DNA of 64,000 bases from Bacteroidaceae bacterium. GTDB taxonomy: Bacteria; Bacteroidota; Bacteroidia; Bacteroidales; Bacteroidaceae. Positions within the stretch are counted from its first letter, which is position 1. The number at the start of each line of letters is the position of its first letter. The notes under the pieces are model-generated. The model made no database searches. It was not told the DNA's origin and saw only the letters and a program-made list of their open reading frames with translations. The position numbers and the translations under genes are program-made. The DNA is taken from contig JAFYQH010000057.1 in the NCBI GenBank assembly GCA_017547205.1, positions 3,794 through 67,793 of the forward strand, in the 5' to 3' direction. Shown piece by piece: positions 3,727 to 38,129 of this stretch.

Positions 3727-4287
3727 ATGAAACGGTATTTTTTTACAGCCATAGTATCGCTTATGCTGTTCGCGGTATCTTTTGCAAATGGAACAGAGAA
3801 TCTTCCGCAGACAAAGAGTAAGAGCGAGATAGAAGTGTACATGCAGAACCTTTCAAAAATTAAATCAAGCGAGATAAATTATGCATACATATCCACTGCC
3901 ATGTTCAAACAGATGTTTGCAATGGTTGGGGCCAATGTGAGTCTGGGTGTAAAGTCGGGTGGTAATGTGAGTCTGGAAACCTTTCCTAATCCATTGGCTT
4001 CGATAAAGAGCATGCGCCGCTTTGCTACAACTGGAAGCAAGGGCTACAAACTGTTGCACGGTGCATTGTATGGGTTTCTGCAGGAGAATGAGAGTGTCAT
4101 GGGAATGGAACTCATGGCTCTGAACCGGGAAGACGGAACTCTCAGGGTAATATACAGCGATTCGGCCAGCCTCCTTGTAATAAATGATGATGGTGATGAA
4201 CTGGCAGTTGTGTTCATTGCTGGATTGTCATACGAAAATTTCATCATCATGAGTGATGGCGGATTTGATTTTGATTTTGGGTTTTAA
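3727..4287 (+). CDS. DUF4252-like secreted protein
   Basis: Has a signal peptide. The pattern YAYISTAMFKQMF...SIKSMRRFATTG...ELMALNREDGTLRVIYSD...LLVINDDGDELAVVFIAG is typical of DUF4252 partners of Bacteroidota ECF sigma factors. Gap to the upstream gene is 3 nt. Confidence 0.65.
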   Translation: MKRYFFTAIVSLMLFAVSFANGTENLPQTKSKSEIEVYMQNLSKIKSSEINYAYISTAMFKQMFAMVGANVSLGVKSGGNVSLETFPNPLASIKSMRRFATTGSKGYKLLHGALYGFLQENESVMGMELMALNREDGTLRVIYSDSASLLVINDDGDELAVVFIAGLSYENFIIMSDGGFDFDFGF

Positions 4288-6969: not shown

Positions 6970-7959
6970 TCATACAGGTACTGGTTTTCCCTCAACCATT
7001 ACAGCCCTTTCGCCATTGAAAATGTGCAGCCTTAGGTTCTCCATTATATGCCGTATGGCAAGTTGTGCCCTGACAGAGTTGCCTGCGGCATCTATTGGCG
7101 GCGAGAAAGCGGCGATACCGAAGATGCCGGGAAGTACACCTATGATACCGCCGCCCACGCCAGACTTGGCCGGTATGCCACAACTGAACATCCAGTCACC
7201 CGTGCGCTCGTAGAATCCTACCGATGCCATCAGTGATGTGATTCTGCTTGCCATTGTGGCCGGGAATACTCTCTTGCCGGTTATTGGGTTATATCCGCCG
7301 CAGGCTATGGTGGCAGCCATTATTGAGAGCTGTCTGGCAGTGACACCCAATGAACATTGACGCGTGTACAGGTCGAGCGACATGTCGGGCTCGTCATAGA
7401 TACGGTCGTAGCTCTTGAGCAGCCATGCTATTGCGCGGTTGTTGTGGTTACTTACACTCTCCGACCTGTACAGTTCGTCGATGAGATGAACCTCACTGCC
7501 ACACAGTTCTGCGATATTCTGTTGAATAGCCTCCCACTTCCCGCAGCTGTTGCCCACAGGACGCACCATGCTTACGGCGGATATGGCTCCGGCATTTACC
7601 AAAGGGGTAGAAGGATGCTCGTTCTCGAGCAGGATTGCCAGTATAGAGTTGAACGGCATGCCCGTGGCATCGGCGCCAATCATATCGAGCAGCGTCTCCG
7701 ACCCGTAATCCTTGAGTACAAGTGCGGCCGTGGCAACCTTTGAAATCGATTCAATCCCAAATACTTGGTCGCTGTCACCGACGGTTATTGTCTCGCCGTC
7801 GGGCAAGCATACTGCTATCCCGAAAAGGTCGCTGTCGACATTGGCGAGGTAAGGTATATAGTCGGCATTCTTTCCCTCCTTGTTGTTTCTGAAACTGATA
7901 TATGCCTCGTTGACGGCAATCTTCAGTTCCTCTCTCGTAATCCTTCTATCCCTGTTCAT
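6970..7959 (-). CDS. glsA: Glutaminase A
   Basis: 329 aa. Contains ...GKNADYIPYLANVDSDLFGIAVCLPDGETITVGDSDQVFGIESISKV...SGVGGGIIGVLPG..., the serine-dependent glutaminase family signature. Confidence 0.93.
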   Translation of the reverse strand: MNRDRRITREELKIAVNEAYISFRNNKEGKNADYIPYLANVDSDLFGIAVCLPDGETITVGDSDQVFGIESISKVATAALVLKDYGSETLLDMIGADATGMPFNSILAILLENEHPSTPLVNAGAISAVSMVRPVGNSCGKWEAIQQNIAELCGSEVHLIDELYRSESVSNHNNRAIAWLLKSYDRIYDEPDMSLDLYTRQCSLGVTARQLSIMAATIACGGYNPITGKRVFPATMASRITSLMASVGFYERTGDWMFSCGIPAKSGVGGGIIGVLPGIFGIAAFSPPIDAAGNSVRAQLAIRHIMENLRLHIFNGERAVMVEGKPVPV

Positions 7960-24282: not shown

Positions 24283-24290
24283 TATATTTG
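24283..24290 (+). promoter_or_regulatory. -7 promoter box (TATATTTG) for the tubulin-like cassette
   Basis: An exact TAnnTTTG match 62 nt upstream of the ATG at 24352. It is followed by the hairpin aattccg-gttgt-cggaatt (24292-24310). Confidence 0.45.
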
Positions 24291-24351: not shown

Positions 24352-24975
24352 ATGAATGTACTTTGGGAAATACTCCAATTTTCAATAGGTAGCCTCTTTT
24401 GGGGAATATTTATCGCTGCAGTCTGCATGTTGCTTTTTTATTTTGCGATTAAAGGCTGGTGGAAGAATGCTGCTTTCACAGTCGTTACGTACATTGTAGG
24501 TGCATTGCTTTTTGTCCTGTTGTCTGTACAATGCATTATGATTTGCGGAGCTATAAAGATAATCTCTTTTACAGATGTCGTAGAGTACAGGACCAAAGAG
24601 ATTCTGGATTCGCGTCACATGTTCAATGTCGAGGTGTCGAGATCGGAAAGCGAAGACATAGTACAGGAATTGCTTGAAGAGTATCCCATATTCAGGAACT
24701 ATTTCGATTACGGATACTTCGAGGGCTATACGGTTGAGACACTTCCGACTGCAGTTGGTGAAGAGATACGCAGTTACTTGCGTGCGTTCATTGCGCGCCG
24801 TTTGCTTTGGTGTCTGGGATTTGTGGTAGTATCAGCAGTTATAGCAATTAAAACAATTTCGCTAAATAACGGTTCCGGTGGCCGTACCCGTGAACGTTCC
24901 GGGAGGCAGCCAATAGGCAGTGACCGTTCACGACCTCGTATAAGTGGTCATTCACGTACAAGAGGAATGAGATAA
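24352..24975 (+). CDS. Integral membrane protein (3 predicted TM helices) with an Arg-rich C-terminal tail. Cassette gene 1.
   Basis: TM candidates are SLFWGIFIAAVCMLLFYFAI, FTVVTYIVGALLFVLLSVQCIMICGAI and LLWCLGFVVVSAVIAI. The tail is GGRTRERSGRQPIGSDRSRPRISGHSRTRGMR. I recognise no family. Confidence 0.7.
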   Translation: MNVLWEILQFSIGSLFWGIFIAAVCMLLFYFAIKGWWKNAAFTVVTYIVGALLFVLLSVQCIMICGAIKIISFTDVVEYRTKEILDSRHMFNVEVSRSESEDIVQELLEEYPIFRNYFDYGYFEGYTVETLPTAVGEEIRSYLRAFIARRLLWCLGFVVVSAVIAIKTISLNNGSGGRTRERSGRQPIGSDRSRPRISGHSRTRGMR

Positions 24976-25001
24976 ATTAATTAAATATAAAACAACTTAT
25001 T

Positions 25002-28000
25002 ATGGAAACAAATTTTGTTAACGGCAATCACATCCTCGTTGGTTTAGGAGGTACCGGCGGTAAGATTCTGCGTGCGTTCAAGATGCGCATGTTCGAAGAG
25101 TTCCCAACTGCTGATGATCGCAAAAAGCTTCCGGTAGCTTTGTTGTATGTCGATTCTACCGACGAGATGATGCCTAAGGACGGCAGAGCCCGTCCCGATT
25201 TTCGTGTAATGGGACAAGACGCTTCGTTTACAAATAACGAGTTCCTGAATATCAAGGCAGTAGATGTTGAACACATACTTGACCATATCAACAACTATCC
25301 TTCGGTAAAAGGTATCGTTGACAATGTTCAGGCTGTACGCTCGGCAATTGGCTCTTTAGGCCAGGCTGCAGGACAGAAACGTCGTGCCGGCCGTCTCTTG
25401 TTTGCGGCAAATGCCGTAGGGTATGTAAACAGCCTTAAGGATGCCTATGCACGTTGCGAGGTAATTTCTACGAATGCCGAAAAGACCTATATACATATTT
25501 TTGCCGGCCTTTGCGGAGGAACCGGTTCGGGTTCTGTTGTGGATGTTATTCTACAGACACGTAAGACATTCCCCAATGCTAAGATTTCTGTCTATGCAAT
25601 GATTCCGGAGATGAACCTTCCTAAAGCGGATATGGACCAGGGCCGTTACTACCAGAACGGTTATGCGGCAATGAACGAGTTGAACGCTTTGCAGGTTGGC
25701 CGCTGGGTGCCTTGCGATGTAACAGGCGGAGGTCCTGCAAACCTGTATAACGACCGTGTCAAGGGTGTTGCCGACGGTTTGACTATCTACAGCAATGTAA
25801 ATGAGAATGGTCTCACTATAAATTCACTCGAAGAACTGCCGAAGATTGTAAGCGACTATATGTTTGCCCGTATATTCTTCATAAACGAAGAGGACCAGGT
25901 TAACGGTGATATTATTCGTTCTTACAATTTCGAGAATATGGACGATTTCGCATTGGAATATGACGAGGCTGCAAATGCAGGCCCAGATGGCCGTATTCCT
26001 GTGGCACGTACCAAGAAAATCAATTCATTCGGTATCAAGCGAGTGATGTATCCCGAACTCCGAGTGCTCAAGCACATCACATATACTATAGGCGAGAGCA
26101 TATTGTACCAGTTCAAATACAACAACTGGCGCGAGAACCTCGGATATGTTGACGAGGAGCGCAACAAGGACTATCGCAAAGAGTATTTCAATAAGGAGAA
26201 CCTTGCGAAATGGATGCTCGATGACCAGCATCTGACAATGGAGGTAAAGGTACTTGAATCCGATGCCGATTACCCAGGCTTCAACGACTATTGGCATGAC
26301 AAGGCTATCGGCTATGCCGAAGACGCCAAGAAGGCCGACTGTCCGCTCAACGAACTCGACACCATAATGGGTGAGTTCTATAGCAAGCATTTCCGCGAGG
26401 AGGGTGTTGAGGCATTCTTCCAGGGCAAGGAGAGGGTGATTCCCGAAATTGCACGTGAGATACGCCATGGCATAGAGGTAGAGCTATTCGAGAAATGGAA
26501 GCTAGGCGATGTTTCTATCGTTGAACTGCAGAAGGTTTCAAAACTCTTGCTTGAGCGTTTGGGAGAGATGCGCGAGGAACTCGAAACAAAAGAAAAAGAG
26601 GAGAAGCTCAATTATGATGCCTGCGAAGAGGACCGCAAGGCGAATGTCGAGGAGTGGAGCCGCTTGGGCATATTGCAGCGTATGGTTGGTGTTGGTGCAC
26701 GCCGTTATGCCGACCATCAAGGTATTCTCACCGACTATTACACCTCAAAGACAATGCTTTGTGCTTGGGAGTTCGCTAAGAAACTCTTGGCAAAAGTATT
26801 TGTAGAGATAGGCAAGATGGATGCCGACATATCTTCTTTCGGACAGAAGATAAACGAGGCTATCGATGAGACTGAGCGTTTGGTTACAGCACAGAAGAAG
26901 GTGAACAAGGGACTTGAGGATATGAAGGGTGCGATAATCGAAGTCAGCGAAGAGGAGGCTATGAGCGAGTTCGAGAAGGAACTCAAGATAGACAAGGTCG
27001 ATATGCCGAACATTGCCCGTCAGTTGCGTGAGTCTATTTTGCCTATCGGTGACTTTATCAATTTCGGTAATTTGGCAAACAGCATAAGCATCGATGACAT
27101 TAAGGATGCATTTGATGTGAAATTGTCCGAGATTGTAAAAATCAAGCACGACGAGAAGGCCGATAGCGATAGCAAGGTGCTGGGCTTGAATATTCTTACA
27201 CAGTTGCAGCAGAAGCTGAAGACAGATGATGATATAAAGGCTTTTGCTTCCAAGATTGTAAGTCAGAGTGGTGTATATCTGCGTTTGAACAACGACCAGA
27301 TTCAGTTGCATCTACGCAATAATGAGGGTAACCTCAGCCCTACAAACCCGGCAAGCATAAACAAGAAGGCTATTCTTGTCTCTATTCCGTCACCCGATGA
27401 GAATGAGGGTCTAAAGAAATTTGCCGATAAGCTTGAGGCTGCATTCAAGAACTCATTCAACCAGAGTACAGCCCGCACAACAATAACTGTTAACCGAAAG
27501 AGTCCACGTAAGGACGAACTTTCGATTATCACAGTATCATACTGTTTCCCGGTGCGTGGAATAGAATGGATGGTTCCTTATAGAGAGCGTTACAACAGAT
27601 TCCTGAATACAGGCAATCCTGCTACAGACAGGAGCAATGCCATTCTGTTGCACAGCGAAGGCGATGGAACTCAGTTGCCGTCACTCTTTGCTGTAGATAA
27701 CGCCGAAGAGATTGCTGCTAAGGCTGCGCAGGCAACAATGCAGACGGGCGTAAATGTACAACAACCTACAACCGGATTTGCGGCACCTCCACCAATGCCG
27801 GGTAATGCACCGGTTCCTCCTCCTGTTGCAGCTCCTATGCCTGATATAAAACTATTTATAGCAGTAGGCGGTCAGCAGTACGGTCCTTACAATATGGAAC
27901 AGTGCAGGCAGATGGTGCAGGGTGGTCAGTTGACAGCTCAAAGTACTGTTTGGATGGAGGGAATGCCATCTTGGACTCCTGCAGGCCAGGTTCCGGCTTT

Positions 28001-28088
28001 GCAGGCATTGTTTGCCCCCCCGGCTGCGGCACCAGGTTTGCCTCCGTTGCCTCCTATGGGTGGTCCGACACCTCCGCCAATGATGTGA
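25002..28088 (+). CDS. Giant tubulin/FtsZ-superfamily GTPase (Tubulin_2-like) with coiled-coil, Pro-rich and GYF_2-like C-terminal modules. Cassette gene 2.
   Basis: HILVGLGGTGGKIL (aa 10-23) is a T1-like Gly loop. FAGLCGGTGSGSVVDV (aa 167-182, nt 25515-25535) carries the exact GGTGSG tubulin signature core. A charged helical region spans roughly aa 500-720. PPPMPGNAPVPPPVAAPMP is followed by KLFIAVGGQQYGPYNMEQCRQMVQGGQLTAQSTVWMEGMPSWTPAGQVPALQALF (nt ~27849-28013, GYF_2-like). The protein ends in the tail PGLPPLPPMGGPTPPPMM. Confidence 0.75.
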   Translation: METNFVNGNHILVGLGGTGGKILRAFKMRMFEEFPTADDRKKLPVALLYVDSTDEMMPKDGRARPDFRVMGQDASFTNNEFLNIKAVDVEHILDHINNYPSVKGIVDNVQAVRSAIGSLGQAAGQKRRAGRLLFAANAVGYVNSLKDAYARCEVISTNAEKTYIHIFAGLCGGTGSGSVVDVILQTRKTFPNAKISVYAMIPEMNLPKADMDQGRYYQNGYAAMNELNALQVGRWVPCDVTGGGPANLYNDRVKGVADGLTIYSNVNENGLTINSLEELPKIVSDYMFARIFFINEEDQVNGDIIRSYNFENMDDFALEYDEAANAGPDGRIPVARTKKINSFGIKRVMYPELRVLKHITYTIGESILYQFKYNNWRENLGYVDEERNKDYRKEYFNKENLAKWMLDDQHLTMEVKVLESDADYPGFNDYWHDKAIGYAEDAKKADCPLNELDTIMGEFYSKHFREEGVEAFFQGKERVIPEIAREIRHGIEVELFEKWKLGDVSIVELQKVSKLLLERLGEMREELETKEKEEKLNYDACEEDRKANVEEWSRLGILQRMVGVGARRYADHQGILTDYYTSKTMLCAWEFAKKLLAKVFVEIGKMDADISSFGQKINEAIDETERLVTAQKKVNKGLEDMKGAIIEVSEEEAMSEFEKELKIDKVDMPNIARQLRESILPIGDFINFGNLANSISIDDIKDAFDVKLSEIVKIKHDEKADSDSKVLGLNILTQLQQKLKTDDDIKAFASKIVSQSGVYLRLNNDQIQLHLRNNEGNLSPTNPASINKKAILVSIPSPDENEGLKKFADKLEAAFKNSFNQSTARTTITVNRKSPRKDELSIITVSYCFPVRGIEWMVPYRERYNRFLNTGNPATDRSNAILLHSEGDGTQLPSLFAVDNAEEIAAKAAQATMQTGVNVQQPTTGFAAPPPMPGNAPVPPPVAAPMPDIKLFIAVGGQQYGPYNMEQCRQMVQGGQLTAQSTVWMEGMPSWTPAGQVPALQALFAPPAAAPGLPPLPPMGGPTPPPMM

Positions 28089-28127
28089 TAATAAGATTTT
28101 AGATAACAATTCAAATAAGAAATAAAA

Positions 28128-28751
28128 ATGGCAAGTAACAGTAACGATAGAATTCGTTTCAGATATGGAATGTGTTTGAACGATGGTTGTTCAAAAGCAA
28201 AGGCAAAAGAGGTGCAGCAGATTCCGGCACGTAAGGAATTTGTTTGTGCCGAGTGTGGAAAGGCATTGCGCGAATGCCCTCCTCCCCCAAAAGGTGGCAA
28301 TACAAAGTTAATAATAGCGATTGTAGCCATTATTGCAGTATTGGCGGGTGGAGCTGCATTATGGTATATGACTTCAGAAAAACCGACACAAACGACAACA
28401 CATGCTGGAGAGGGTGGTGGAAAATCGGATACTACTATAGTAGCAGATACTTTAACTCAGAAGCCACAAACACCTGCTAAAGATGGTGGCAAGAAGAAGG
28501 CTCCCGTTGTTAATCAGGTTGTTACTAAGGATTTTGGCTATGCAGTTTACAAAGGCCGCATGAAGAACGGTAAGATGCACGACGATAATGGCGTGCTTAC
28601 ATTCAAGAAGGCACACATTATAGAGCCACGTGATATCAAACAGCGTACAGCGCAGCCTGGCGAAAGAGTTACCGGAATTTTTGAGGACGGACACCTTGTA
28701 ACAGGTACCTGGCATAAAAATGATGGCAACAAAGAATCAATAATTCCCTAA
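28128..28751 (+). CDS. Zn-ribbon / PPPP motif / single TM / MORN-like repeat protein. Cassette gene 3.
   Basis: The segment CLNDGC...(19 aa)...CAECG forms a 4-Cys ribbon. It is followed by ECPPPPKGG (nt 28278-28298) and the TM helix LIIAIVAIIAVLAGGAALWYM. The C-terminus has YKGRMKNGKMHDDNGVLTF and GIFEDGHLVTGTWHKNDG, which are MORN-like. Confidence 0.65.
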   Translation: MASNSNDRIRFRYGMCLNDGCSKAKAKEVQQIPARKEFVCAECGKALRECPPPPKGGNTKLIIAIVAIIAVLAGGAALWYMTSEKPTQTTTHAGEGGGKSDTTIVADTLTQKPQTPAKDGGKKKAPVVNQVVTKDFGYAVYKGRMKNGKMHDDNGVLTFKKAHIIEPRDIKQRTAQPGERVTGIFEDGHLVTGTWHKNDGNKESIIP

Positions 28752-28756
28752 CACTT

Positions 28757-29743
28757 GTGAATAATCTGTTTAAAACAGTATATTGTTCTCTATTCATTAT
28801 GCTACTCCCGCTATCTTTGTGGGGGCAGCATAATGGCATTTTGGGTGACAGGTTACGTAACGAGGCACTGAAGGCTTCGGAAGAGATTCCCGCAATATCG
28901 GTGCTCTTTAATTTCGCTGAACGTTATTTGGGAATGCTGCGGGACATGGACAATGCCGAACGTTCATCTCGCATGCAGCGCGATGATGTACGCATATTAA
29001 AGGGAAGTGTAGAGGCTCTTGCCCGGATAAACGATAAGACATCTTGGGCTTTTGCCGAGAAGAATGACAGGTATAACCTGCTCATATCCAATTCAGGAAC
29101 TCCTTTGATAGAGATGTCTGTCCCGGCATCTTGTCAGTTGCTTACAGGAAAGAATCTCAAGGAACTTGAACGTGATTTCTTTGCCGGGCTTGACAATTAT
29201 TCGTTCAGAGTTGTCGATACGTTGTCGGCCGATGTTTCGGAATGCGAACATCTCCACGGAAACTATTACCTTAAACCAGGTGAGTCGTACCAGATTAAAG
29301 AAATAAACAGCAACCTTTATCTGGAAAATGTTGACAATAGCCTGCAATTGGTATTCGATGTCGATCATCCGGCTGAGAGTTGTCACAATCTTCTTCTATT
29401 GGAGACATGCCCCGGAGATGTGTTGTTGCAGCTAGTTGTACGTAAATACGGATTAAAGAAAGAAGAACGTACTTTACCTCTGCGGCTATGGCTATCGTAT
29501 CTGAAGGTACTCGGATGCAATATATACATAGGAGTAGAAGAGATGAATGCCGACCATATCAGAGTTGCATTCTTTGCAGTCAATACAATAATGAGGTTCA
29601 ATCACATAATGAATGCCGAAGTACCATACTCAATCTTCAAGGATGGTAAGGGGACTGTAAAAGGTGACCTCAATACGTTTATTCCAACTCACAATATATC
29701 GGCACTGTTTGATGAACTGAATCAACATTCCGGCGGTAAGTGA
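28757..29743 (+). CDS. Signal-peptide protein of unknown family. Cassette gene 4.
   Basis: GTG start 5 nt after the previous stop. Signal peptide MNNLFKTVYCSLFIMLLPLSLWGQ. No recognisable motifs. Confidence 0.65.
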   Translation: MNNLFKTVYCSLFIMLLPLSLWGQHNGILGDRLRNEALKASEEIPAISVLFNFAERYLGMLRDMDNAERSSRMQRDDVRILKGSVEALARINDKTSWAFAEKNDRYNLLISNSGTPLIEMSVPASCQLLTGKNLKELERDFFAGLDNYSFRVVDTLSADVSECEHLHGNYYLKPGESYQIKEINSNLYLENVDNSLQLVFDVDHPAESCHNLLLLETCPGDVLLQLVVRKYGLKKEERTLPLRLWLSYLKVLGCNIYIGVEEMNADHIRVAFFAVNTIMRFNHIMNAEVPYSIFKDGKGTVKGDLNTFIPTHNISALFDELNQHSGGK

Positions 29744-29772
29744 CAGATAGATACGGTTAAAAAACAATAATT

Positions 29773-30501
29773 ATGAAAAAGTCTTTTATACTATTTATTT
29801 TAGGTATCAGTTTTGCTTGTGTTATTAATGCACAGAATAATGACGATACAAAAGCACAGATAAACAAAATCAAACGCTCTACGCAGTATCTTTCGGCCGA
29901 GGCTACAATGGCAACGGAAGAGGAGGCATTGAACTTGGCAAGAGAGCTGCTAGTCGCAGAGATAAACGATTGGGTTGCTTCGAAAAGAAAAGGCGCAGAA
30001 GTCAAGCAGGTTGTTCTACAGGATATAAATTCATGTGCCCAGCAGATGGATATGAAACGAGGTGTAAAGACCCGTGCATTTCTCTATGTAAAGAAGAAAG
30101 ATATAGTGCTGATATATGGTGAAGGCCAGATTGTGCTGAACAATGAGGAGAGTGGAGTTGACTTGCAGCCCCTATCGGAGATATCCACCCCGTTGCAGAA
30201 TGATGTCGCCGTTGTCGAAAATGCCGAAGATACATCTTTTAAGAAGATATTGGGTGCAAAGACAATGACAGACTTGAAACCGATTTTTGCTTCATTGAAG
30301 AATGACGGCAAGATAAAATATGGCAGCTACAATTCAGATATAGTTCTGGAAGAGTGTTATTTGCTGTTCTACACACGCGAAGGCAATATAAAGTCCATTG
30401 TCCGCAAGAACAGAGACAATTACACTGATGCAAAGGGCAAAAAGACAATTAACCTGTCCGACTTCAGCGGTTGTGGTGCATATTGGTTCATTTTACAGTA
30501 A
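29773..30501 (+). CDS. Signal-peptide protein of unknown family. Cassette gene 5.
   Basis: Signal peptide MKKSFILFILGISFACVINAQ. Gap to the upstream gene is 29 nt. Confidence 0.7.
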   Translation: MKKSFILFILGISFACVINAQNNDDTKAQINKIKRSTQYLSAEATMATEEEALNLARELLVAEINDWVASKRKGAEVKQVVLQDINSCAQQMDMKRGVKTRAFLYVKKKDIVLIYGEGQIVLNNEESGVDLQPLSEISTPLQNDVAVVENAEDTSFKKILGAKTMTDLKPIFASLKNDGKIKYGSYNSDIVLEECYLLFYTREGNIKSIVRKNRDNYTDAKGKKTINLSDFSGCGAYWFILQ

Positions 30502-30519
30502 AAGTATAAATATAATATT

Positions 30520-31518
30520 ATGAGAAATTTATTACGTTGGCTGACGGTTGCCGTTTGTTTTTCTGCAATAGTTACCGTCAATGCACAGGAAGGAGTTAAA
30601 TTGGAGATTGTAGATGGTCTGTATAATGATGCTCTGAAAACAAAAATGGAGAGGTCGGCAAGCCGGTTGCTTACCGAGATAAATGCTGCATACAACGATA
30701 ACCGCGCATTGAACCTGGTAAACATGGGTCTTTCCGACGGTGCTGTCAGCGGTCTTGCAGCCCTTTGGGAGAATGTTCATTTCTATTGCGACGACAGTGA
30801 GGTAGTGCAGTCTTGTCTTACTGTGGGCAATACTTATCAGGTGCGCCAAATTCCATTAATGATCAAGCCTCAAGGCGAGAGCCTCGATGATGAATATCAG
30901 GAGGCTGTCATAAACTTTGACGCTACGGGCAAAATAACACGTTTCAATTTTACGCTTAGCACAAATGTCTATCAGAATGTGATGAAGAAGGGCAAGACCG
31001 TAACAGAAGTCAGCCGTCGTCAACAGATTCTCTCCTATGTTGAGCAGTTCCGTACAGCATATAATGAAAAGGATATTGTTTTCCTGGAGAATATCTTTAG
31101 TGAGGATGCTCTTATCATCACTGGTACTGTAACAAAAGTCAGGAAGACTGACGGTGTTGGTATATCATACAATAAGGTAACATATAAGAAACAGAACAAA
31201 CAGCAGTATATCGCTAACCTGAAAAGAAGCTTTGCGAGCAACAAGTGGATAAATGTGCTCTTTGAGGATGTAAAGGTTGTCAAGCATCCGAATCCTATGA
31301 TGGAAGGCTTCTATGGTGTAACAGTCCGTCAGAAGTACTCAAACAGCCGTGGTTACAGCGACGATGGCTATCTTTTCCTATTGTGGGATTTCCGCGACAA
31401 GGACAATGTTCAGATACACGTACGTACATGGCAACCTTACTGGATGGACGACAATAAGACACAGCCTATTGCAAAAGAAGATGTCTTTACACCTGGGGAT
31501 TTTGTAATTGACCTATAA
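30520..31518 (+). CDS. Signal-peptide protein whose C-terminal half is possibly NTF2/SnoaL-like. Cassette gene 6.
   Basis: Signal peptide MRNLLRWLTVAVCFSAIVTVNAQ. The C-terminal pattern is ILSYVEQFRTAYNEKDIVFLENIFSEDALIITG...YIANLKRSF...FYGVTVRQKY...GYLFLLWDF. Gap is 18 nt. Confidence 0.65.
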   Translation: MRNLLRWLTVAVCFSAIVTVNAQEGVKLEIVDGLYNDALKTKMERSASRLLTEINAAYNDNRALNLVNMGLSDGAVSGLAALWENVHFYCDDSEVVQSCLTVGNTYQVRQIPLMIKPQGESLDDEYQEAVINFDATGKITRFNFTLSTNVYQNVMKKGKTVTEVSRRQQILSYVEQFRTAYNEKDIVFLENIFSEDALIITGTVTKVRKTDGVGISYNKVTYKKQNKQQYIANLKRSFASNKWINVLFEDVKVVKHPNPMMEGFYGVTVRQKYSNSRGYSDDGYLFLLWDFRDKDNVQIHVRTWQPYWMDDNKTQPIAKEDVFTPGDFVIDL

Positions 31519-31529
31519 TTCAAATAGTT

Positions 31530-32927
31530 ATGAAGGTGTTGGAAAAGATAATCCTTTTATCGCTCTTGTTATTCATTGCTGTTGTAAAGATAAACGCACA
31601 GGACTACAATACAGTCCTTGTGTCACCGGTAGAGAATAAGGACAAGACAGCCCCGGCTGACGGAGTTATCATTATAATTACATCGAACTGCGACAATCTC
31701 ATAATGTCGCATAGTGTAGGAATAGAGAAGGGTGTAAAGAGTATCGAAAGCAACGGACGCTACAAATACACTATAGAATATACATTCCCCGAGGATTATG
31801 ATGATGATTTCATGAAGACGCAATTGCAGTTGCGCTTGCCTATAGGCCAGGAAACAGTTCCGCTCACAATGTACAAGGGAAAGGTGTATGAAGGTGAATA
31901 CAATGAACGTACAAGCATTGCTGTAAACCGTGAGAAGGATGCCGTTTATCCATATGCCAAATTCGCTAAGGTTACTTTCATGTCGGCATTTACCAACCTT
32001 ACCATATCGTGCAACGGTATCGTATGTTTCGAAAACGGCAAGCCAGTTTCGTTGAGCAACTGCAACATGAAGGCATCTACCGAAACGGTTGGCGAACAGA
32101 AGGACTATGCAATTGTATTCAACCTCGCTCCCGAGACCAAGGGCAAAAACGATGTCACTGGCAATGCTATATTCAAGATAAGCTCTCCCGATTTCAGCAG
32201 TGTTGAAGTCAAACAGGATGAATTGGTTGGCCGTACCTCCTATCTGTTTATGGTGGTAAGGGCAAACGGTGAAACATACGAAGAGGTGCTTGCTATTGCC
32301 CAGGAAAAGGAATCGGGTTATGAGAAAGAGACTACAAGTGCATATTTTGCGGCTGTTGCCGATGCATACGAAGCTGCAAGCAAGCATTTGCAGTGCCCTG
32401 TTGACAAGAAAGAAACTCATCAGATACAGGCAAACAAGTTCAAGAAGATACGTAACCACACAAATGCCATAAACCAGGCCGACGAGCGTTGGCGCAAGGT
32501 CGCTGCAGATGAGGGTTTCGAATCGTCCAATGTGTGGAAATACCTGAATTTTGAACGTAAGCGTCTGCGTGCGTTGATTGAGGAGTTCCCCGAAATGGAG
32601 TATTATACCAAACTGTTGAGTGAGATAGATGCCGAATATATGAAGCACCCCTCATCTACAGTTGAATATCCGGTTATCAAGGGAACCGTTTCTGCTGGTG
32701 ACGGTTGGATATTCCCAGTGGATATAGATATATACGCATCGGATGTATATATAGACGGCATCGGTGATGTGAAGAAACACAACCTTAAGAAAGTTGGTAC
32801 AGTGCAAGGTGGCAAATATTCGATAACATTGCGCGAAAAATGCAAATATCTCTATTTCCAGGGAGAGAGCCGTTCGCATTCTATCGAGTACGTGACACAG
32901 ACACTTGACGTGGAGCTAGTTCCATGA
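31530..32927 (+). CDS. Signal-peptide protein of unknown family (beta-rich N-terminus, helical middle, beta-rich C-terminus). Cassette gene 7.
   Basis: Signal peptide MKVLEKIILLSLLLFIAVVKINAQ. Gap is 11 nt. Confidence 0.7.
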   Translation: MKVLEKIILLSLLLFIAVVKINAQDYNTVLVSPVENKDKTAPADGVIIIITSNCDNLIMSHSVGIEKGVKSIESNGRYKYTIEYTFPEDYDDDFMKTQLQLRLPIGQETVPLTMYKGKVYEGEYNERTSIAVNREKDAVYPYAKFAKVTFMSAFTNLTISCNGIVCFENGKPVSLSNCNMKASTETVGEQKDYAIVFNLAPETKGKNDVTGNAIFKISSPDFSSVEVKQDELVGRTSYLFMVVRANGETYEEVLAIAQEKESGYEKETTSAYFAAVADAYEAASKHLQCPVDKKETHQIQANKFKKIRNHTNAINQADERWRKVAADEGFESSNVWKYLNFERKRLRALIEEFPEMEYYTKLLSEIDAEYMKHPSSTVEYPVIKGTVSAGDGWIFPVDIDIYASDVYIDGIGDVKKHNLKKVGTVQGGKYSITLREKCKYLYFQGESRSHSIEYVTQTLDVELVP

Positions 32928-32968
32928 TTAAACATAACATTATTAGTATAATATTAAATTAAAAAACT

Positions 32969-33766
32969 ATGAAGACATTGACAAAAGTGATGGTTGCAAT
33001 GCTTGCAGTCATGATGATGGTACCTATGAGTGCAGAAGCTTCGAGTCAGAAGAAAAAGAAAGAAAAGAAAAAATTTGAGTGGGTTATGCCCGAACTGACA
33101 GGAAATGAAAGCTTTGACCAGTATTTGTTAAGCTGTGACACCATTTGGAACAGGACTAAGGTCGTTGCCGAGAATATGCACACCTATACATTCAAGACCG
33201 ACACATTGCGTGGAATTAATGGTTCAGATTATGTTATGGCCCACATGGAAGATGCTTCAGGTGCGTATCTTACTCGCGGTGCAGTTACATGGCAGCTGAT
33301 TGAAGCAATCAAGGAAGGTGCCGGCATTGTACTCGATATTGCAAACATCGGTGTCCTGACAGCTGCGGCAACAACAGCATTGCCGGGTCTGGGCGTTAAG
33401 GCACTGTCTTACGGCAAGTATCTTAAATCGGGACCGAAAATCATTCAAGGTTGCGGTTCTGAGATTAAGGAGATTGCAGCAGTACGCCGTCAGCAATACC
33501 AGCAGTGGAAGTCTATGAAAGAGGGTGCTGTCGATGCGTCAACACTAGGTATATGGAACGAGGAGCAGCTGAAGTCTCTCTCCAAGTGCTGTTTCATCAC
33601 TAAGCTCGACACTACCACAAGCCGTGAGCTTACTCCCGAAGAGGTTGCTGCTCAGGAGGCTCTTATGGGCGGTTTGAACATATCTGTCGCACCAGAGGTG
33701 TTAGGCCAGACACTCGATGCCGAGCCAGAGGACCTCGATGCCCTCATGGAAGCCGAGGGTGTTTGA
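32969..33766 (+). CDS. Signal-peptide protein with a poly-Lys stretch and an acidic tail. Cassette gene 8.
   Basis: MKTLTKVMVAMLAVMMMVPMSAEASSQKKKKEKKKFEW... There is an internal hydrophobic segment, GIVLDIANIGVLTAAATTALPGLGV. The acidic C-terminus is AEPEDLDALMEAEGV. Confidence 0.7.
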   Translation: MKTLTKVMVAMLAVMMMVPMSAEASSQKKKKEKKKFEWVMPELTGNESFDQYLLSCDTIWNRTKVVAENMHTYTFKTDTLRGINGSDYVMAHMEDASGAYLTRGAVTWQLIEAIKEGAGIVLDIANIGVLTAAATTALPGLGVKALSYGKYLKSGPKIIQGCGSEIKEIAAVRRQQYQQWKSMKEGAVDASTLGIWNEEQLKSLSKCCFITKLDTTTSRELTPEEVAAQEALMGGLNISVAPEVLGQTLDAEPEDLDALMEAEGV

Positions 33767-33780
33767 TAACCCCAGTGCAC

Positions 33781-33832
33781 TATATAAAATATTTGGAACA
33801 GCAGAACTCTGCTGTTCCAAATATTTTATATA
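33781..33832 (+). terminator. Strong hairpin (24-bp perfect stem) after cassette gene 8
   Basis: tatataaaatatttggaacagcag-aact-ctgctgttccaaatattttatata. The GC-rich core is followed by an A/U-rich tract. Confidence 0.7.
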
Positions 33833-33845
33833 ACTTTACCGTTAA

Positions 33846-35585
33846 ATGAAACCTATTGTTTGTGTTGCTATGAATAGAGCATTTATCCTTTTTATACTGT
33901 CACTGTTTTCCTTTTCAATATATGCCCAGAACATACGTGTGGAGTCTTTCGGCATTGTCATGAACGATGCCACAGCATCTGCTTCTCCTGTACTGGATGC
34001 CAATGATGACCCTTGTGCTCTCATACGTCTTGTAACCACCGACAAGGAATATGAAATAGACGGCAACATCAAACGTGTTGAGAAGACGGGCGAGCTGCTC
34101 TTCTATGTTCCTTCCGGTACCCGTCAAGTGACAATACGCCACAGCAGCTTAGGTGTCCTGAACTACTCCTTTGAGCAGCGTCTGCAGTCAAAGGCCACAT
34201 ACAGAATGGTTCTGCCGTCGAACACCATCGTAATACATAGTGAGGACAGAGGCGGCCATTATCTTGTGATGAGGATTGTCCCGGCCAATGCCGTAGTGCA
34301 TATAGACGGAATGCTGGAGAATGTGAGAGATGGCCTGTTGCAGAAATTCCTCCCTTATGGCATGCATACCTATCGTGTAGAAGCTCCATTATACAGCATG
34401 GAGGAGGGGAGTGTGGAGATAGGGCGTGAGAAGAAACAACTGGACATATCTCTGAAACCCAATTTTGCCAATGTTACACTAAAGGCACAAGGTGCTGAGA
34501 TAAAAGTGAACAGCGAGTCCAAAGGCAACGGCTCATGGAGCGGCCGCCTCAATCCCGGAACATATCTGGTGGAAACTGTAAAGCCCGGATACCGCAACGC
34601 TTCATATACTCTTGTCGTTGTTAGCGGAGAGGACAGAAGTGTAGACTTGCCGATGCCTACACCCATGTACGCATCGCTCGATGTAAGCAGTAATGCAGTG
34701 AATGGCAGTGTCTATGTCGATGGTAAGCATATTGGCAACACCCCTGACATATTCAAGGTACTTGCCGGGAAGCATACCGTTGAATTGCGCGCAAACGGTT
34801 ATGAATCGAAGAGCTATACAGTTGAACTGGCCGAGGGAGAAGCTAAAAAATTATTTGCAGAACTTAAGGAAACTGCCAAATCTACATATGGAGGACAGGC
34901 AACAACCGCTTCATCAAGTAGTAATTGCACTATCAATGGCCACGAATATGTTGATTTGGGTTTGCCAAGCGGACTTAAATGGGCAACCTGCAATGTAGGT
35001 GCAAATGCGTCAGAAGAGTATGGCAATTATTATGCCTGGGGCGAGACAAAAACCAAGAAAAGTTATAATACAGGTAATAGCAAAACCTGTGGAGAAAGCA
35101 ATGTCCCTTCTGATATAAGCGGAATCCATGCATACGATGCAGCCCTTAAGAACTGGGGCGGCAGTTGGCGTATGCCCACATGGGAAGAATTTAAGGAACT
35201 GCTGAAATATTGTACCTGGACCTGGGCATCCCGTAACGGCAAGAATGGCTATGAGGTCAAGAGCAAGAAGAATGGTAACAGCATCTTTCTGCCTGCGGCC
35301 GGTTACCGCTGTGATGGGTGGTCCAACTACGATGGGGCTCGCGGTTGCTATTGGAGTGCTACGCCTGTCGAGAGCAATCCCATATTAAACATAATTTGGG
35401 GTAGTTCCTCGAGTGCGTACAGCCTTTTCTTCGATAATAGTGGCAAACTCATCGATATTGCCGAGGACCACATGTATTGGCACATACGTTACCACGGTCT
35501 AAGTGTTCGCCCAGTCCTCGAAGAGGAGAAAGCTATATTAATTGAATTTGAGAAGCGAGACCGAAACCAGGAGCAGCTACAATGA
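33846..35585 (+). CDS. PEGA-repeat protein with a C-terminal DUF1566 / Fibrobacter-paralogous-type domain
   Basis: The signal peptide is best read from the alternative start at 33870 (MNRAFILFILSLFSFSIYAQ). PEGA-like repeats include VYVDGKHIGNTPDIFKVLAGKHTVELRANGYESKSYTVEL. The C-terminus has INGHEYVDLGLPSGLKWATCNVGA...YYAWGE...WRMPTWEEFKELL...IFLPAAGYR...YWSATP. Confidence 0.75.
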   Translation: MKPIVCVAMNRAFILFILSLFSFSIYAQNIRVESFGIVMNDATASASPVLDANDDPCALIRLVTTDKEYEIDGNIKRVEKTGELLFYVPSGTRQVTIRHSSLGVLNYSFEQRLQSKATYRMVLPSNTIVIHSEDRGGHYLVMRIVPANAVVHIDGMLENVRDGLLQKFLPYGMHTYRVEAPLYSMEEGSVEIGREKKQLDISLKPNFANVTLKAQGAEIKVNSESKGNGSWSGRLNPGTYLVETVKPGYRNASYTLVVVSGEDRSVDLPMPTPMYASLDVSSNAVNGSVYVDGKHIGNTPDIFKVLAGKHTVELRANGYESKSYTVELAEGEAKKLFAELKETAKSTYGGQATTASSSSNCTINGHEYVDLGLPSGLKWATCNVGANASEEYGNYYAWGETKTKKSYNTGNSKTCGESNVPSDISGIHAYDAALKNWGGSWRMPTWEEFKELLKYCTWTWASRNGKNGYEVKSKKNGNSIFLPAAGYRCDGWSNYDGARGCYWSATPVESNPILNIIWGSSSSAYSLFFDNSGKLIDIAEDHMYWHIRYHGLSVRPVLEEEKAILIEFEKRDRNQEQLQ

Positions 35586-35689
35586 TGATTACGCTGAAAT
35601 ATTATACCTGGACCTGGGAAAGCTATCCCCGCAAGCGGTGCAAAAAATCAGTAAAACCCACTACTCCAAATAAAACCACTTTTGAATGA
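35582..35689 (+). pseudogene. Possible remnant of a paralogous DUF1566-type gene
   Basis: Positions 35593-35619 (gctgaaatattatacctggacctggg) match 35201-35227, inside the upstream CDS, at 26 of 27 nt. The remnant reads MMITLKYYTWTWESYPRKRC... for 35 codons. Confidence 0.3.
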
Positions 35690-35700
35690 TAATAAATATT

Positions 35701-35903
35701 ATGTTTAATATGGTTTTGATATTTGCACGCTATCCTGGATTCTCGTACATTTTTCGAAATTTCCGTAAGCAGGTGAAAATACATAATTAATAATTAAACA
35801 TGTCTTATGTTTAATATGGTTTTGATATTTGCACACAATCCTGGATTACGTACAGTTTTTCGAAATTTTCGTAAGCAGGTGATATTTGCACACAACCTGA
35901 ATT
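35701..35903. repeat. Tandem direct repeat (two 76-bp copies with a 106-bp period, plus a partial third copy)
   Basis: Copy 1 (35701-35776) is atgtttaatatggttttgatatttgcacgctatcctggattctcgtacatttttcgaaatttccgtaagcaggtga. Copy 2 (35807-35882) is about 90% identical. gatatttgcacacaacctgaatt (35881-35903) repeats the core a third time. Confidence 0.85.
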
Positions 35904-35930: not shown

Positions 35931-36260
35931 ATGACTATGAACGATAACAGAATTCTTAGACTTATTGACTCCTCGTACAAGGAGTGTGAGGTTACCGGTA
36001 GAGATATGGGTGGAGATTACACATTTGAGATTCCTGTAGCAGACCTTGCCCTTGGATATGTTGAGTGGACTTCTGATTTTAGGCCAAACCATGGTGTCAA
36101 CATTGTTGAAATTGGTGAGAAATATATAAAGCTCGAAGTTATATCTGTTTCGCGCCAGTCCAGAGATTCCTATACACTCTATGTTGGAGACAAAAAGAGC
36201 ATGAATTATATGTTCGGTGAATGGAGTTTTGGCTATACGATATCTGTTGAGAATAGATAA
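35931..36260 (+). CDS. Small hypothetical protein, apparently translationally coupled to the downstream Dus gene
   Basis: MTMNDNRILRLIDSSYKECEVTGRDMGGDYTFEIP... Its stop, TAA at 36258-36260, overlaps the ATG at 36260-36262 (TAATG). The ORF-track start at 35913 is a TTG. Confidence 0.5.
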   Translation: MTMNDNRILRLIDSSYKECEVTGRDMGGDYTFEIPVADLALGYVEWTSDFRPNHGVNIVEIGEKYIKLEVISVSRQSRDSYTLYVGDKKSMNYMFGEWSFGYTISVENR

Positions 36261-37238: not shown

Positions 37239-38129
37239 TTAAACTGTTGCTGTTCCGTTGTCCAAAAGTCTGTCATTTTTCACAAACTCTATCTGTGCCG
37301 CAAGGTTGTACCCTTCTTCGTACAGTGCGAGTATCTTCTGTATGTCGCGCTCCATGCGTCCCACTTCTATTGGTCTGACGGGGCGCAGCACCTCTACCCT
37401 GCCTTCGTTCTCCATACTTTCAACGAGCTCCATCTGGCGGTTGTACATGGCATTGCGTCCACGTATCGCCTTCTTGGCATTGGGGTATTTCCTATAAAAG
37501 AAAAACGGCACCTTGGTAGGTTTACCGGGCTTGCGGTATCCGCGGTTGCGGGTAAGGACGACAAGGAGGTTGTCGCATCCCTGGGACATGGCGCGTTCGA
37601 TAGGGATTGAATCAGAGATGCCGCCGTCGAGCATGGGTTCCCCGTCTACGTATGTTATGGGGCAGACGAAAGGCAGGCTGCTCGATGCCTTTACAATGTC
37701 AATCACACGCTTGGGGTCGTTCTTTTCCTCGAAGTAGCATGCCTTGCCCGTTATACAGCTTGTTGTCACAGCTTCGAACCGTTCCGTTGTCCTGGCAAGT
37801 GCCTCGTAATCATATGGGTATATCTCTTCGGGCAACTTGTGGAACAGCAGGTCGAAGTCCATGATATTGCCCTTTGTGATGAGATGCCTGAACCCTATGT
37901 ATCTGTATTTCTCGAGCAGGACGGTATTCGTGTATTTGGCCCTGCCGCGCTGCACCGACAGGTATGAAAGTGCATTGCATGCTCCGGCACTTACACCTAT
38001 TATATAAGGGAAGCGTATGCCCCGGTCCATGAAGTTGTCCAGTACGCCTATGGTGAATATGCCGCGCATGCCACCACCCTCGAGAACAAGGCCGCTCTTT
38101 TCGTTAATTTCAAAAATTTTCTTTCCCAT
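37239..38129 (-). CDS. Patatin-like phospholipase family protein (cytoplasmic type)
   Basis: Contains LVLEGGGMRGIFTIGVL...IIGVSAGACN...LDGGISDSIP (GGGxRG, GxSxG, DGG). Confidence 0.88.
   Translation of the reverse strand: MGKKIFEINEKSGLVLEGGGMRGIFTIGVLDNFMDRGIRFPYIIGVSAGACNALSYLSVQRGRAKYTNTVLLEKYRYIGFRHLITKGNIMDFDLLFHKLPEEIYPYDYEALARTTERFEAVTTSCITGKACYFEEKNDPKRVIDIVKASSSLPFVCPITYVDGEPMLDGGISDSIPIERAMSQGCDNLLVVLTRNRGYRKPGKPTKVPFFFYRKYPNAKKAIRGRNAMYNRQMELVESMENEGRVEVLRPVRPIEVGRMERDIQKILALYEEGYNLAAQIEFVKNDRLLDNGTATV

Follow-up and report, generated by a model that had tools for sequence, protein, structure and literature searches.

A conserved Bacteroidales gene cassette sets an FtsZl1-type GTPase beside a zinc-ribbon transmembrane protein and a series of putative periplasmic proteins

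The contig JAFYQH010000057.1 of a Bacteroidaceae bacterium (GenBank assembly GCA_017547205.1) was analyzed over 64,000 nucleotides (positions 3,794 to 67,793, hereafter the window), in which an initial annotation made from the sequence alone had singled out nine consecutive genes, g1 to g9, around a tubulin/FtsZ-like GTPase. The first eight of these genes (24352-33766) form a self-contained, relocatable, operon-like Bacteroidales unit, with g9 only loosely associated, and encode a GTPase predicted to have a complete tubulin fold (g2), two inner-membrane proteins (g1 and g3), and five proteins that look like soluble or membrane-associated periplasmic components (g4 to g8). On balance, we favor an architectural model in which this cassette couples the cytoplasmic GTPase to a periplasmic assembly across the inner membrane, with g3 as the coupler. 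All nine open reading frames (ORFs) lie on the + strand, and their coordinates, given here as window positions, were confirmed, as were the intergenic gaps, which measure 26, 39, 5, 29, 18, 11, 41, and 79 nt from g1 to g9. Related loci used for comparison are labeled L0xx.

24352-24975, + strand: g1, ORF of 207 amino acids (aa)
25002-28088, + strand: g2, ORF of 1028 aa
28128-28751, + strand: g3, ORF of 207 aa
28757-29743, + strand: g4, ORF of 328 aa with a GTG start
29773-30501, + strand: g5, ORF of 242 aa
30520-31518, + strand: g6, ORF of 332 aa
31530-32927, + strand: g7, ORF of 465 aa
32969-33766, + strand: g8, ORF of 265 aa
33846-35585, + strand: g9, ORF of 579 aa

The GGTGSG signature from which g2 had first been assigned to the tubulin/FtsZ superfamily proved to be part of a far more extensive similarity, which identifies the protein by sequence as a member of the FtsZl1 family (Pfam Tubulin_2, PF13809) described by Makarova & Koonin in 2010 (PMC2875224). 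The match to Tubulin_2 spans model positions 1-354 of 356 (E=1.4e-43, 150 bits, cut-off 27), and both GTP-binding loops are recognizable, T1 as GLGGTGG at residues 14-20 (GGTGG at 16-20) and T4 as CGGTGSG at residues 171-177 (GGTGSG at 172-177). In a family alignment, in which 105 full-length relatives share 22-78% identity with g2, residues G16, G17, G19, G169, G175, and G177 are invariant, and T18, G172, G173, T174, and S176 are conserved at 90% or more. AlphaFold2, supplied with this alignment, produced a model with a mean predicted local distance difference test score (pLDDT) of 90 and a predicted TM-score (pTM) of 0.82. When this model was compared to the PDB with Foldseek, the best match was CetZ (3zid_A; E=1.6e-6, 354 columns of a 360-residue chain, TMt 0.51), along with alpha-, beta-, and gamma-tubulins and BtubAB at ~1e-5 over ~380 columns (tubulins 354-384; probability 1.00), and weaker matches to PhuZ and phage FtsZ/tubulin models (1e-4 to 1e-2, probability 1.0). 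Because the model matches CetZ and tubulins over ~350-380 residues, residues 9-380 of g2 are predicted to form a complete two-domain tubulin/FtsZ fold, whereas the family had been aligned only up to helix H5 in 2010. By sequence alone, g2 resembles solved tubulins, FtsZ, and RepX only in the T4 loop, and these similarities are not significant (E=0.14 to 1; FtsZ ~1). Judged by sequence and predicted helix position, the stretch N309-F-E311-N-M-D314-D315 after helix 299-309 resembles the T7 motif NxDxx[DE] and is a candidate T7 loop; in the 105-sequence alignment, E311 and E319 are conserved at 90% or more.

Past the tubulin domain, the modeled protein is helical over residues 390-770, including a long hairpin (506-553/564-630), and continues with an alpha/beta domain at residues 788-885 that carries a near-invariant LHxEGDG motif. 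The C-terminus consists of a disordered proline-rich linker, a GYF_2 domain (PF14237; E=3.8e-16, 59 bits, cut-off 25.8, residues ~951-1000), and a proline-rich tail, and no transmembrane (TM) helix was detected anywhere in g2 by hydropathy. For the C-terminal region, Foldseek results were dominated by tubulin-domain matches, the others being non-significant hits to RusA-like, SMC-like, and dynamin-like structures, and a profile search against PDB sequences returned designed helical bundles and the Rad50 coiled-coil alone. This organization agrees with FtsZl1 proteins, which likewise combine an N-terminal FtsZ/tubulin GTPase bearing a GGGTG(S/T)G signature with a coiled-coil, mostly helical C-terminus for a total of ~900-1100 aa, are encoded with membrane and secreted proteins, and co-exist with a canonical FtsZ in the host lineage. 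However, FtsZl1 operons have been characterized by vWA proteins, a divergent P-loop GTPase, a Ser/Thr kinase, OmpA, and families B1-B9, none of which is found in the cassette, where the partners are instead g1, a zinc-ribbon-TM-MORN protein, and orphan secreted proteins, and where the GTPase adds a C-terminal GYF_2 domain. The only true Bacteroidetes entry in the 2010 list of FtsZl1 proteins, BACCAC_02057 (913 aa), also sits in another neighborhood, with a 535-aa hypothetical protein and a Cys protease. In short, g2 is a member of the FtsZl1 protein family, and its operon is not of the described type.

The two proteins encoded on either side of g2 are inner-membrane proteins, and their features were largely as initially described. 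For g1, hydropathy predicts three TM helices (residues 15-33, 48-66, and 151-169), a loop of ~80 aa in the periplasm, and an Arg-rich cytoplasmic tail; across the family, the C-terminal 35 aa carry a median net charge of +9, and no match to Pfam or NCBIfam was found. The other protein, g3, combines a cytoplasmic zinc ribbon (C16, C21, C40, and C43), the motif LRECPPPPK, a TM helix at residues 61-79, a low-complexity linker, and MORN repeats at approximately residues 133-205. These assignments were confirmed at the level of the family, in which the four cysteines are invariant and the motif LRECPPPK, the single TM helix, and MORN repeats recur. The Pfam MORN model (PF02493) matched 29 of 47 g3 orthologues (best E-value 2.3e-8), the window protein itself falling below the HMMER reporting threshold, and the family profile retrieved MORN1 structures from the PDB (E=2.7e-7). 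Zinc-ribbon models of Pfam matched 13 + 9 of the 47 orthologues, and a weak match to CwsA, a cell-wall synthesis protein, extended across the N-terminus and TM region in nine of them. With one end on each side of the membrane, g3 is the likely transmembrane coupler between the GTPase and the periplasm, and its PPPP-bearing peptide, LRECPPPPKGGN, is a candidate proline-rich ligand for the GYF domain of g2.

Each of the remaining products, g4 to g9, starts with a signal-like hydrophobic segment by hydropathy, retained in ~90-95% of orthologues, which upholds the signal peptides initially assigned to g4 to g8 as well as a topology running from the cytoplasm through the inner membrane to the periplasm. 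The most conserved of the secreted proteins is g6, with 30 invariant columns in 46 sequences, including polar residues within the motifs FSxDAxIITG and RTWQP; its relatives number >4200, all ~320 aa long, with zero fusions. The C-terminal half of g6 is NTF2-like, as indicated by a match to Pfam Cds6_C that is below the cut-off in the window protein (1.6e-4) and precomputed for many relatives, and no account of what "Cds6" is was found in the literature. This sub-threshold match was the only one obtained for g4, g5, or g6 when window proteins were compared with Pfam, NCBIfam, PHROGs, and PADLOC, and neither a Pfam search with 46 orthologues each of g4 and g5 nor a comparison of the g4, g5, and g6 family profiles with PDB sequences yielded any match. 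For g4, a signal peptide with predicted cleavage near WG|Q precedes three modeled alpha+beta modules (AlphaFold2 pLDDT 89, pTM 0.85) for which Foldseek found no significant neighbor in the PDB, the best being weak matches to NTF2-like cones over ~115 columns (E=0.056); all 107 proteins of this family are annotated as hypothetical. In g5, which belongs to no known family, a variable linker connects an N-terminal and a C-terminal domain, both of them conserved. Some g7 orthologues appear to contain a CarboxypepD_reg/PEGA-like beta-sandwich (Pfam CarboxypepD_reg and CarbopepD_reg_2 matched 6 and 4 of 35 members, respectively). Finally, g8 has a Lys-rich N-terminus and a glycine-zipper-like hydrophobic segment at residues 120-138, and ~9 of 34 family members match Gly-zipper_YMGG, Gly-zipper_Omp, or 2TM glycine-zipper models at this internal hydrophobic segment. 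The description of g9 as a PEGA and DUF1566-like protein stands for its PEGA part (9.4e-18, along with CarboxypepD_reg at 4.3e-11); Lcl_C/DUF1566 is matched weakly in the C-terminal domain, below the Pfam cut-off (1.3e-3). The cassette proteins have no lipoprotein box, and Pfam and NCBIfam identified no peptidoglycan enzyme, vWA domain, P-loop GTPase, kinase, nuclease, or protease among them.

A HMMER search of the full library recovered g2 relatives in 1007 clusters (50% identity), 288 of which had E<=1e-30, the best-scoring ones being mostly ~1000 aa long and alignable end to end at identities down to ~25%. Among GTDB species representatives, at least 441 loci encode a g2 relative, and the best 80 of these are essentially all from Bacteroidales, bar a few bins with other-phylum record titles. 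Carriers belong to Prevotella/Segatella, Paraprevotella, Alloprevotella, Muribaculaceae, Paludibacteraceae, and Tannerellaceae, and include some Bacteroides and Phocaeicola, e.g., Bacteroides sp. GM023 (L071), P. faecicola (L073), and B. gallinaceum (L081). When ORFs from 82 loci were searched iteratively with profiles, g1 was retrieved in 71 loci, directly upstream of g2, along with g3 in 77, g4 in 76, g5 in 71, g6 in 75, g7 in 42, and g8 in 37. The order g1-g2-g3-g4-g5-g6 is kept in ~70 of these 82 Bacteroidales loci, over a range of g2 identities from 91% to 35%, and g7-g8 are present in about half; the genes are clustered far beyond chance, with the same order recurring in ~70 independent loci, and the linkage of g1 and g3-g8 to the GTPase gene was thereby borne out. 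Flanking genes show the opposite pattern, with no family recurring in more than ~10 of the 82 loci. Two divergent GTPase copies are found in single metagenome-assembled genomes (MAGs) of Ca. Paraprevotella stercoravium (L018 and L069, 82% and 33% identity) and of Muribaculaceae MGBC152089 (L011 and L080, 74% and 34% identity). As a separate observation, in 4 of the 82 loci (e.g., L001/L002 7001-8230), g1 is immediately preceded by two small ORFs and a gene for a Ser/Thr protein kinase, echoing the kinase association reported for FtsZl1 in 2010.

The limits of the unit are marked most clearly by its closest relative, L026, in which g2 is 91% identical at the amino acid level and ~79% at the nucleotide level. 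At the DNA level, L026 and the window are similar from 3 nt 5' of the g1 ATG to 33761, at the g8 stop; the neighboring genes are unrelated, and g9 is absent from L026 after g8. Elsewhere, the region 3' of g6 is occupied either by g7-g8 (~40 loci), with g8 always after g7, or by one to three PEGA-type proteins (~33 loci). In the window, g8 and g9 are in addition separated by an inverted repeat:

33781-33832, unstranded: palindrome between g8 and g9, with 25-nt arms that are 100% complementary and a GC-rich core between A/U tracts

The RNA of this palindrome folds into a stem of 24 bp (-33.2 kcal/mol, z=-10.6), the length given for the hairpin initially, and is a probable terminator of the g1-g8 unit. 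Because similarity to L026 stops at g8, the hairpin intervenes, and PEGA proteins replace g7-g8 in other loci, the unit was delimited as g1-g8, and g9, initially counted as a possible ninth member, was left outside.

Within this unit, the proteins do not all diverge together. Using identity to the window proteins across 72 loci, the cytoplasmic block, i.e., g1, three parts of g2, and the N-terminal part of g3 (g3N), co-varies with Spearman correlations of 0.61-0.97 (g3N vs g2, 0.83-0.91; g1 vs g2, 0.64-0.73). The C-terminal part of g3 (g3C) instead tracks g6 (0.58) and g5 (0.44) and does not track g2 (0.23-0.31). The same division is visible in three mosaic loci, L071, L061, and L072, in which a distant GTPase of the GYF-less type and a distant g3N are combined with the periplasmic block nearest to that of the window after L026. 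Identities to the window in these loci are 46-52% for the g2 tubulin domain and 33-49% for g3N, compared to 64-78% for g3C, 38-46% for g4, 56-64% for g5, and 68-78% for g6. The two halves of the cassette, cytoplasmic and periplasmic, evolve as distinct blocks and, because the mosaic loci split g3N and g3C between the distant and the near block, the recombination joint between them lies inside g3, near its TM helix. Such a joint is what would be expected if the two ends of g3 serve partners on opposite sides of the membrane. Rates of divergence differ as well: where g4 and g5 have dropped to 22-30% identity and g6 to ~45%, the g2 tubulin domain is still 80-88% identical; this slow evolution of g2 fits a constraint by self-assembly interfaces, with the periplasmic parts evolving fast or diversifying.

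Searches around distant GTPase relatives revealed that a protein of the g3 kind is not restricted to Bacteroidales. A g3-like gene adjoins the GTPase gene in L083, from another Bacteroidota (g3 hidden Markov model, 4e-15), with proteins tailed for the type IX secretion system (T9SS) encoded downstream, and in L085, on a Paraburkholderia megaplasmid (NZ_CP155075.1, 818701-837681; g2 identity 32%), where the g3-like neighbor (3e-13) has a TPR-like ectodomain. Two metagenomic contigs provide further cases, namely L088, with a g3-like neighbor (5e-12) in whose ectodomain no domain was recognized and a phospholipase-like gene downstream, and L087, with a g3-like neighbor (1e-6) that has a He_PIG ectodomain. 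A zinc-ribbon-TM protein hence accompanies this GTPase subfamily from Bacteroidota to Betaproteobacteria, and its periplasmic domain differs from one lineage to another (MORN, TPR, or He_PIG). In L086 (ENA scaffold_525_c1), the gene beside the GTPase specifies a protein in which a Cys-rich N-terminus and a TM helix are followed by PBP-like (PBP_like_2) and OmpA domains, which raises the possibility that the partners termed "OmpA-like" in 2010 are adaptors akin to g3. Other neighbors in L085 and L086 include caspase-like Peptidase_C14+Sel1 proteins (four in L086), DUF4384, serpin, and trypsin-DUF4384 proteins. Classical vWA-linked family members align with g2 over residues 1-228 only, at ~26% identity, and the Thermus oshimai homologue has this classical arrangement, adjoining vWA, BrxL-like, and TROVE genes. 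We also noted that the distant Tubulin_2 gene of L087 adjoins a gene for a Gly-zipper_YMGG protein (7164-7835), comparable to the glycine-zipper matches in the g8 family; glycine-zipper proteins may be a recurrent accessory of Tubulin_2 systems.

How the GTPase and the adaptor might meet is suggested by the distribution of two short features across loci. Where g2 has a GYF domain, g3 contains PPP beside its zinc ribbon in 38 loci and no strict PPP in 20 (mostly APPK or PRP), compared to 2 loci with PPP and 16 without when the GYF domain is absent (odds ratio 15, Fisher p=7e-5). A precedent for such a contact comes from GltJ of the Myxococcus Agl-Glt gliding machinery, whose GYF domain (PDB 7z3c_A) is homologous to the GYF_2 domain of g2 (E=8e-6) and binds a proline-rich sequence of AglZ in vitro with micromolar affinity (Attia et al. 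2024, PMC11135422; PDB 7z3c). Zinc ribbon and GYF co-occur in 44% of bacterial GYF proteins (PMC11135422). GltJ further resembles the cassette in having a cytoplasmic zinc ribbon before a TM helix and a periplasmic domain, and in linking a nucleotide-dependent platform to an envelope complex. However, the zinc ribbon and GYF domain that GltJ holds in one polypeptide are split here between g3, with the zinc ribbon and PPPP, and g2, with the GYF domain. The GTPase of Agl-Glt is moreover the Ras-like MglA, whereas no Agl/Glt, MglA/B, or AglZ homologues are present here and the hosts are non-gliding gut Bacteroidales.

Under the favored coupling model, g2 would self-assemble in the cytoplasm in a GTP-dependent manner and would be held at the inner membrane by the zinc ribbon of g3. 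In the Prevotella-type clade, the C-terminal GYF domain of g2 would also bind the PPPP motif between the g3 zinc ribbon and TM helix, and the basic tail of g1 may assist in membrane attachment. On the other side of the membrane, the MORN repeats of g3 would hold the NTF2-like g4 and g6, together with g5 and g7/g8, so that assembly or disassembly of the GTPase inside the cell would set where, or whether, the periplasmic complex clusters. Signaling in the opposite direction, from the periplasm to the GTPase, is equally possible. The most likely role of such a system would be the spatial organization or remodeling of the envelope, rather than cell division or DNA segregation.

A number of points weigh against this model. 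Co-divergence demonstrates co-inheritance and not physical contact, and the association between GYF and PPP rests on few independent evolutionary events, with 2 + 20 exceptional loci. The original description of the family left polymerization open and did not identify T6-H7, its alignment having reached helix H5 only (PMC2875224), and the high pTM of the g2 model suggests that the helical domains pack on the GTPase domain, where they could block longitudinal contacts. Transcription of g1-g8 as an operon is inferred from gene spacing alone. No outer-membrane beta-barrel or other outer-membrane component was found in the cassette, and none of g4-g8 has a beta-barrel-type C-terminal signature. 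"Envelope organization" is itself a placeholder, because no enzymatic or lipid-binding activity could be assigned to g4-g8. Lastly, a literature search on FtsZl1/Tubulin_2/PF13809, DUF4339, and Bacteroid* tubulin-like proteins found no experimental work on any family member. Two elements of the initial annotation have accordingly been dropped: "trans-envelope" for want of an outer-membrane part, and "cytoskeletal motor" as an overstatement, since no evidence of a motor was found and the polymerization of g2 is a prediction.

A wider version of the coupling model can be formulated, and we consider it tentative and rather doubtful. It would make g1-g8 the Bacteroidales form of a hitherto unrecognized, phylum-spanning class of bacterial machine in which a polymerizing FtsZl1 GTPase of ~1000 aa is paired with an adaptor made of a zinc ribbon, a TM helix, and a variable ectodomain, and in which GTP-driven assembly positions, clusters, or mechanically actuates a lineage-specific periplasmic module. 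This module would consist of NTF2-like, PEGA, and glycine-zipper proteins here, and of a caspase-like protease, phospholipase-like proteins, or T9SS cargo elsewhere. If true, such a class would represent a principle of cytoskeleton-to-periplasm coupling distinct from the divisome, the MreB-elongasome, and Agl-Glt.

Alternatively, the cassette could be a conflict, stress, or abortive-infection module, in which periplasmic proteins would sense envelope damage or an invader, g3 (with g1) would relay the signal, and multimerization of g2 dependent on nucleoside triphosphates (NTPs) would serve as the threshold or effector event; g8, with its glycine zipper, or PEGA proteins would be the variable effectors. 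Kaur, Burroughs, Iyer & Aravind (2020) interpreted tubulin + coiled-coil operons of Firmicutes and Actinobacteria as conflict systems centered on GTPases (GAP1-N2/DO-GTPase; PMC7159879), and FtsZl1-type tubulins elsewhere are found in predicted systems of this type (PMC7159879). The likeness extends to a tubulin domain fused to a C-terminal coiled-coil or helical domain, to lineage-specific gene arrays with some membrane or extracellular products, and to the proposed NTP-dependent multimerization. In the same direction point the vWA, BrxL-like, and TROVE genes beside the Thermus oshimai homologue, as well as the Peptidase_C14+Sel1, DUF4384, serpin, phospholipase-like, and kinase-PEGA-FGE-sulfatase genes among which distant g2 relatives are encoded. 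The variable placement and makeup of the cassette would fit too: it occupies different chromosomal sites even among close relatives, some MAGs hold the two divergent copies described above, terminal genes are swapped as modules (g7-g8 vs PEGA), and the periplasmic parts diverge fast and recombine. However, the systems of Kaur et al. were described in Firmicutes and Actinobacteria only and contain GAP1-type GTPases, FNIII, vWA, and often HSP70, whereas Pfam and NCBIfam searches detected no vWA, GAP1-type GTPase, HSP70, FNIII, nuclease, protease, or recognizable effector in the cassette. Compared to PADLOC-DB v2, the nine proteins had best E-values of 0.008 and 0.013, to unrelated Cas/CARF models, and there was no meaningful PHROG match. 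The flanks are housekeeping genes rather than a defense island, five periplasmic components would be unusual in phage defense, and the very strong conservation of g2 across genera, together with the presence of a relative in at least 441 species representatives, would be more usual for a core function of the cell. Taken together, a conflict role seems unlikely; if true, it would mean that the dominant phylum of the human gut has a defense architecture whose periplasmic arm is unusually large.

A further and distinctly improbable alternative is that g2 is an accessory FtsZ paralogue acting in division or cell shape, as archaeal CetZ does, with g1 and g3 as tethers in the manner of FtsA, ZipA, or SepF and with the periplasmic proteins acting on peptidoglycan. 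CetZ is the best single structural match, an OmpA-type peptidoglycan-binding partner is encoded in the distant relative L086, and the weak CwsA match recurs in nine of 47 g3 orthologues. The proposed tether logic also resembles that of FtsZ with ZipA, as a tubulin-fold GTPase without its own anchor would be attached through a flexible C-terminal linker and a terminal binding module. This module is, however, a folded GYF domain for a proline-rich motif and not a C-terminal peptide as in FtsZ, and the tether runs on into the periplasm through the MORN repeats. Neither FtsZ nor CetZ has a counterpart of the ~500 residues of helical and alpha/beta structure that extend g2, and sequence similarity to FtsZ is restricted to the T4 loop (E ~1). 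A division role, for which no evidence was found, would also have to accommodate a patchy distribution, variable genomic positions outside the dcw cluster, and a set of proteins (g3-g8) with no peptidoglycan enzyme or peptidoglycan-binding domain.

DNA segregation or positioning of the TubZ/PhuZ type by a plasmid, prophage, or other mobile element is the least probable explanation by far and was effectively refuted, as the initial annotation had anticipated from the housekeeping flanks and the lack of phage or plasmid context: the cassette is relocatable, and its GTPase has, in common with TubZ, RepX, and PhuZ, a divergent tubulin fold of bacterial type (Foldseek matches PhuZ and phage tubulins with probability 1.0 and E-values of 1e-4 to 1e-2), yet the matches to CetZ and tubulins are stronger, g2 has ~650 extra residues, its partners are membrane and secreted proteins, and no mobile context, TubR-like DNA-binding gene, centromere repeats, integrase, or replication gene was found. 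Such proteins are also nearly absent from mobile elements. A tblastn search with g2 residues 1-400 retrieved four non-mobilizable megaplasmids from a set of 72,556 plasmids and, from 50,697 phage records, a single 9.8-kb fragment that carries no annotation; 2.9 million viral contigs yielded just two weak matches.

The DNA surrounding the unit was also inspected for signals and neighboring genes. Upstream of g1, one candidate promoter element had been proposed:

24283-24290, + strand: candidate promoter box TATATTTG, matching the Bacteroidetes -7 box TAnnTTTG, 62 nt 5' of the g1 ATG

Because TAnnTTTG occurs in the window at the rate expected by chance (43 vs 43.7), the box is plausibly placed and is by itself no promoter evidence, so that its initial rating as a good promoter could not be retained. 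A scan for sigma-70 promoters and terminators gave counts equal to those of shuffled sequences, and such a scan does not apply to Bacteroidetes. The flanking genes encode an Aminotran_1_2 protein (divergent strand), Dus, a patatin-like protein, a redoxin, and an epimerase; no mobile-element genes, including integrases and transposases, were found among those examined (19.0-40.2 kb), and no tRNA genes were found in the window. The patatin-like phospholipase gene, which has a DUF6363 C-terminal domain (37239-38129, - strand), lies 1.6 kb 3' of the cassette and is not conserved beside it in other loci.

Several features immediately downstream of g9 are recorded here in their own right. A 43-nt segment of the g9 3' coding region (35201-35243) recurs with 79% identity just past the g9 stop (35593-35635), where it resembles what is left of a truncated DUF1566-like paralogue. 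Further on lies a tandem duplication of ~106 nt (35699-35895) in two blocks that are 95-96% identical, maybe a duplicated regulatory sequence, and the intergenic region that separates g9 from the small ORF/dus contains three copies of the motif TGATATTTGCAC. This small ORF (35931-36260, 109 aa) has no Pfam match, and its stop overlaps the dus start (ATGA), suggesting translational coupling with dus. At the scale of the window, cumulative GC skew climbs steadily to ~1.93 near 42-44 kb and then drops, which could reflect a switch point in strand bias or a mere change in gene orientation.

To our knowledge, FtsZl1/Tubulin_2 is the largest branch of the tubulin superfamily without a single experiment, sixteen years after its description. 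Consistent with the initial annotation, we found no published function for the GTPase family; the literature after 2010 consisted of a 2023 phylogeny, in which the family served as an outgroup, and the 2020 conflict-system paper, with nothing on this cassette. The novelty initially claimed must be narrowed, as both the GTPase family and the proposal of membrane-associated operons around FtsZl1 date from 2010 (PMC2875224). What appears to be new here is the Bacteroidales partner set, the zinc-ribbon-TM adaptor shared across phyla, the split of zinc ribbon and GYF between two proteins, the two-block mosaic evolution, and the full-length tubulin fold of the family. The cassette supplies a partner set that is compact, strongly conserved, and found in Bacteroidales abundant in the gut and rumen, and it offers a defined candidate for a binary interaction, between the GYF and alpha/beta domains of g2 and the zinc-ribbon-PPPP end of g3. 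The zinc-ribbon-TM adaptor is the first candidate for a universal partner of the FtsZl1 family, which recombination at the adaptor supports. Overall, the findings on the adaptor and on recombination turn a vague idea of "membrane remodeling" into a testable model of transmembrane coupling.

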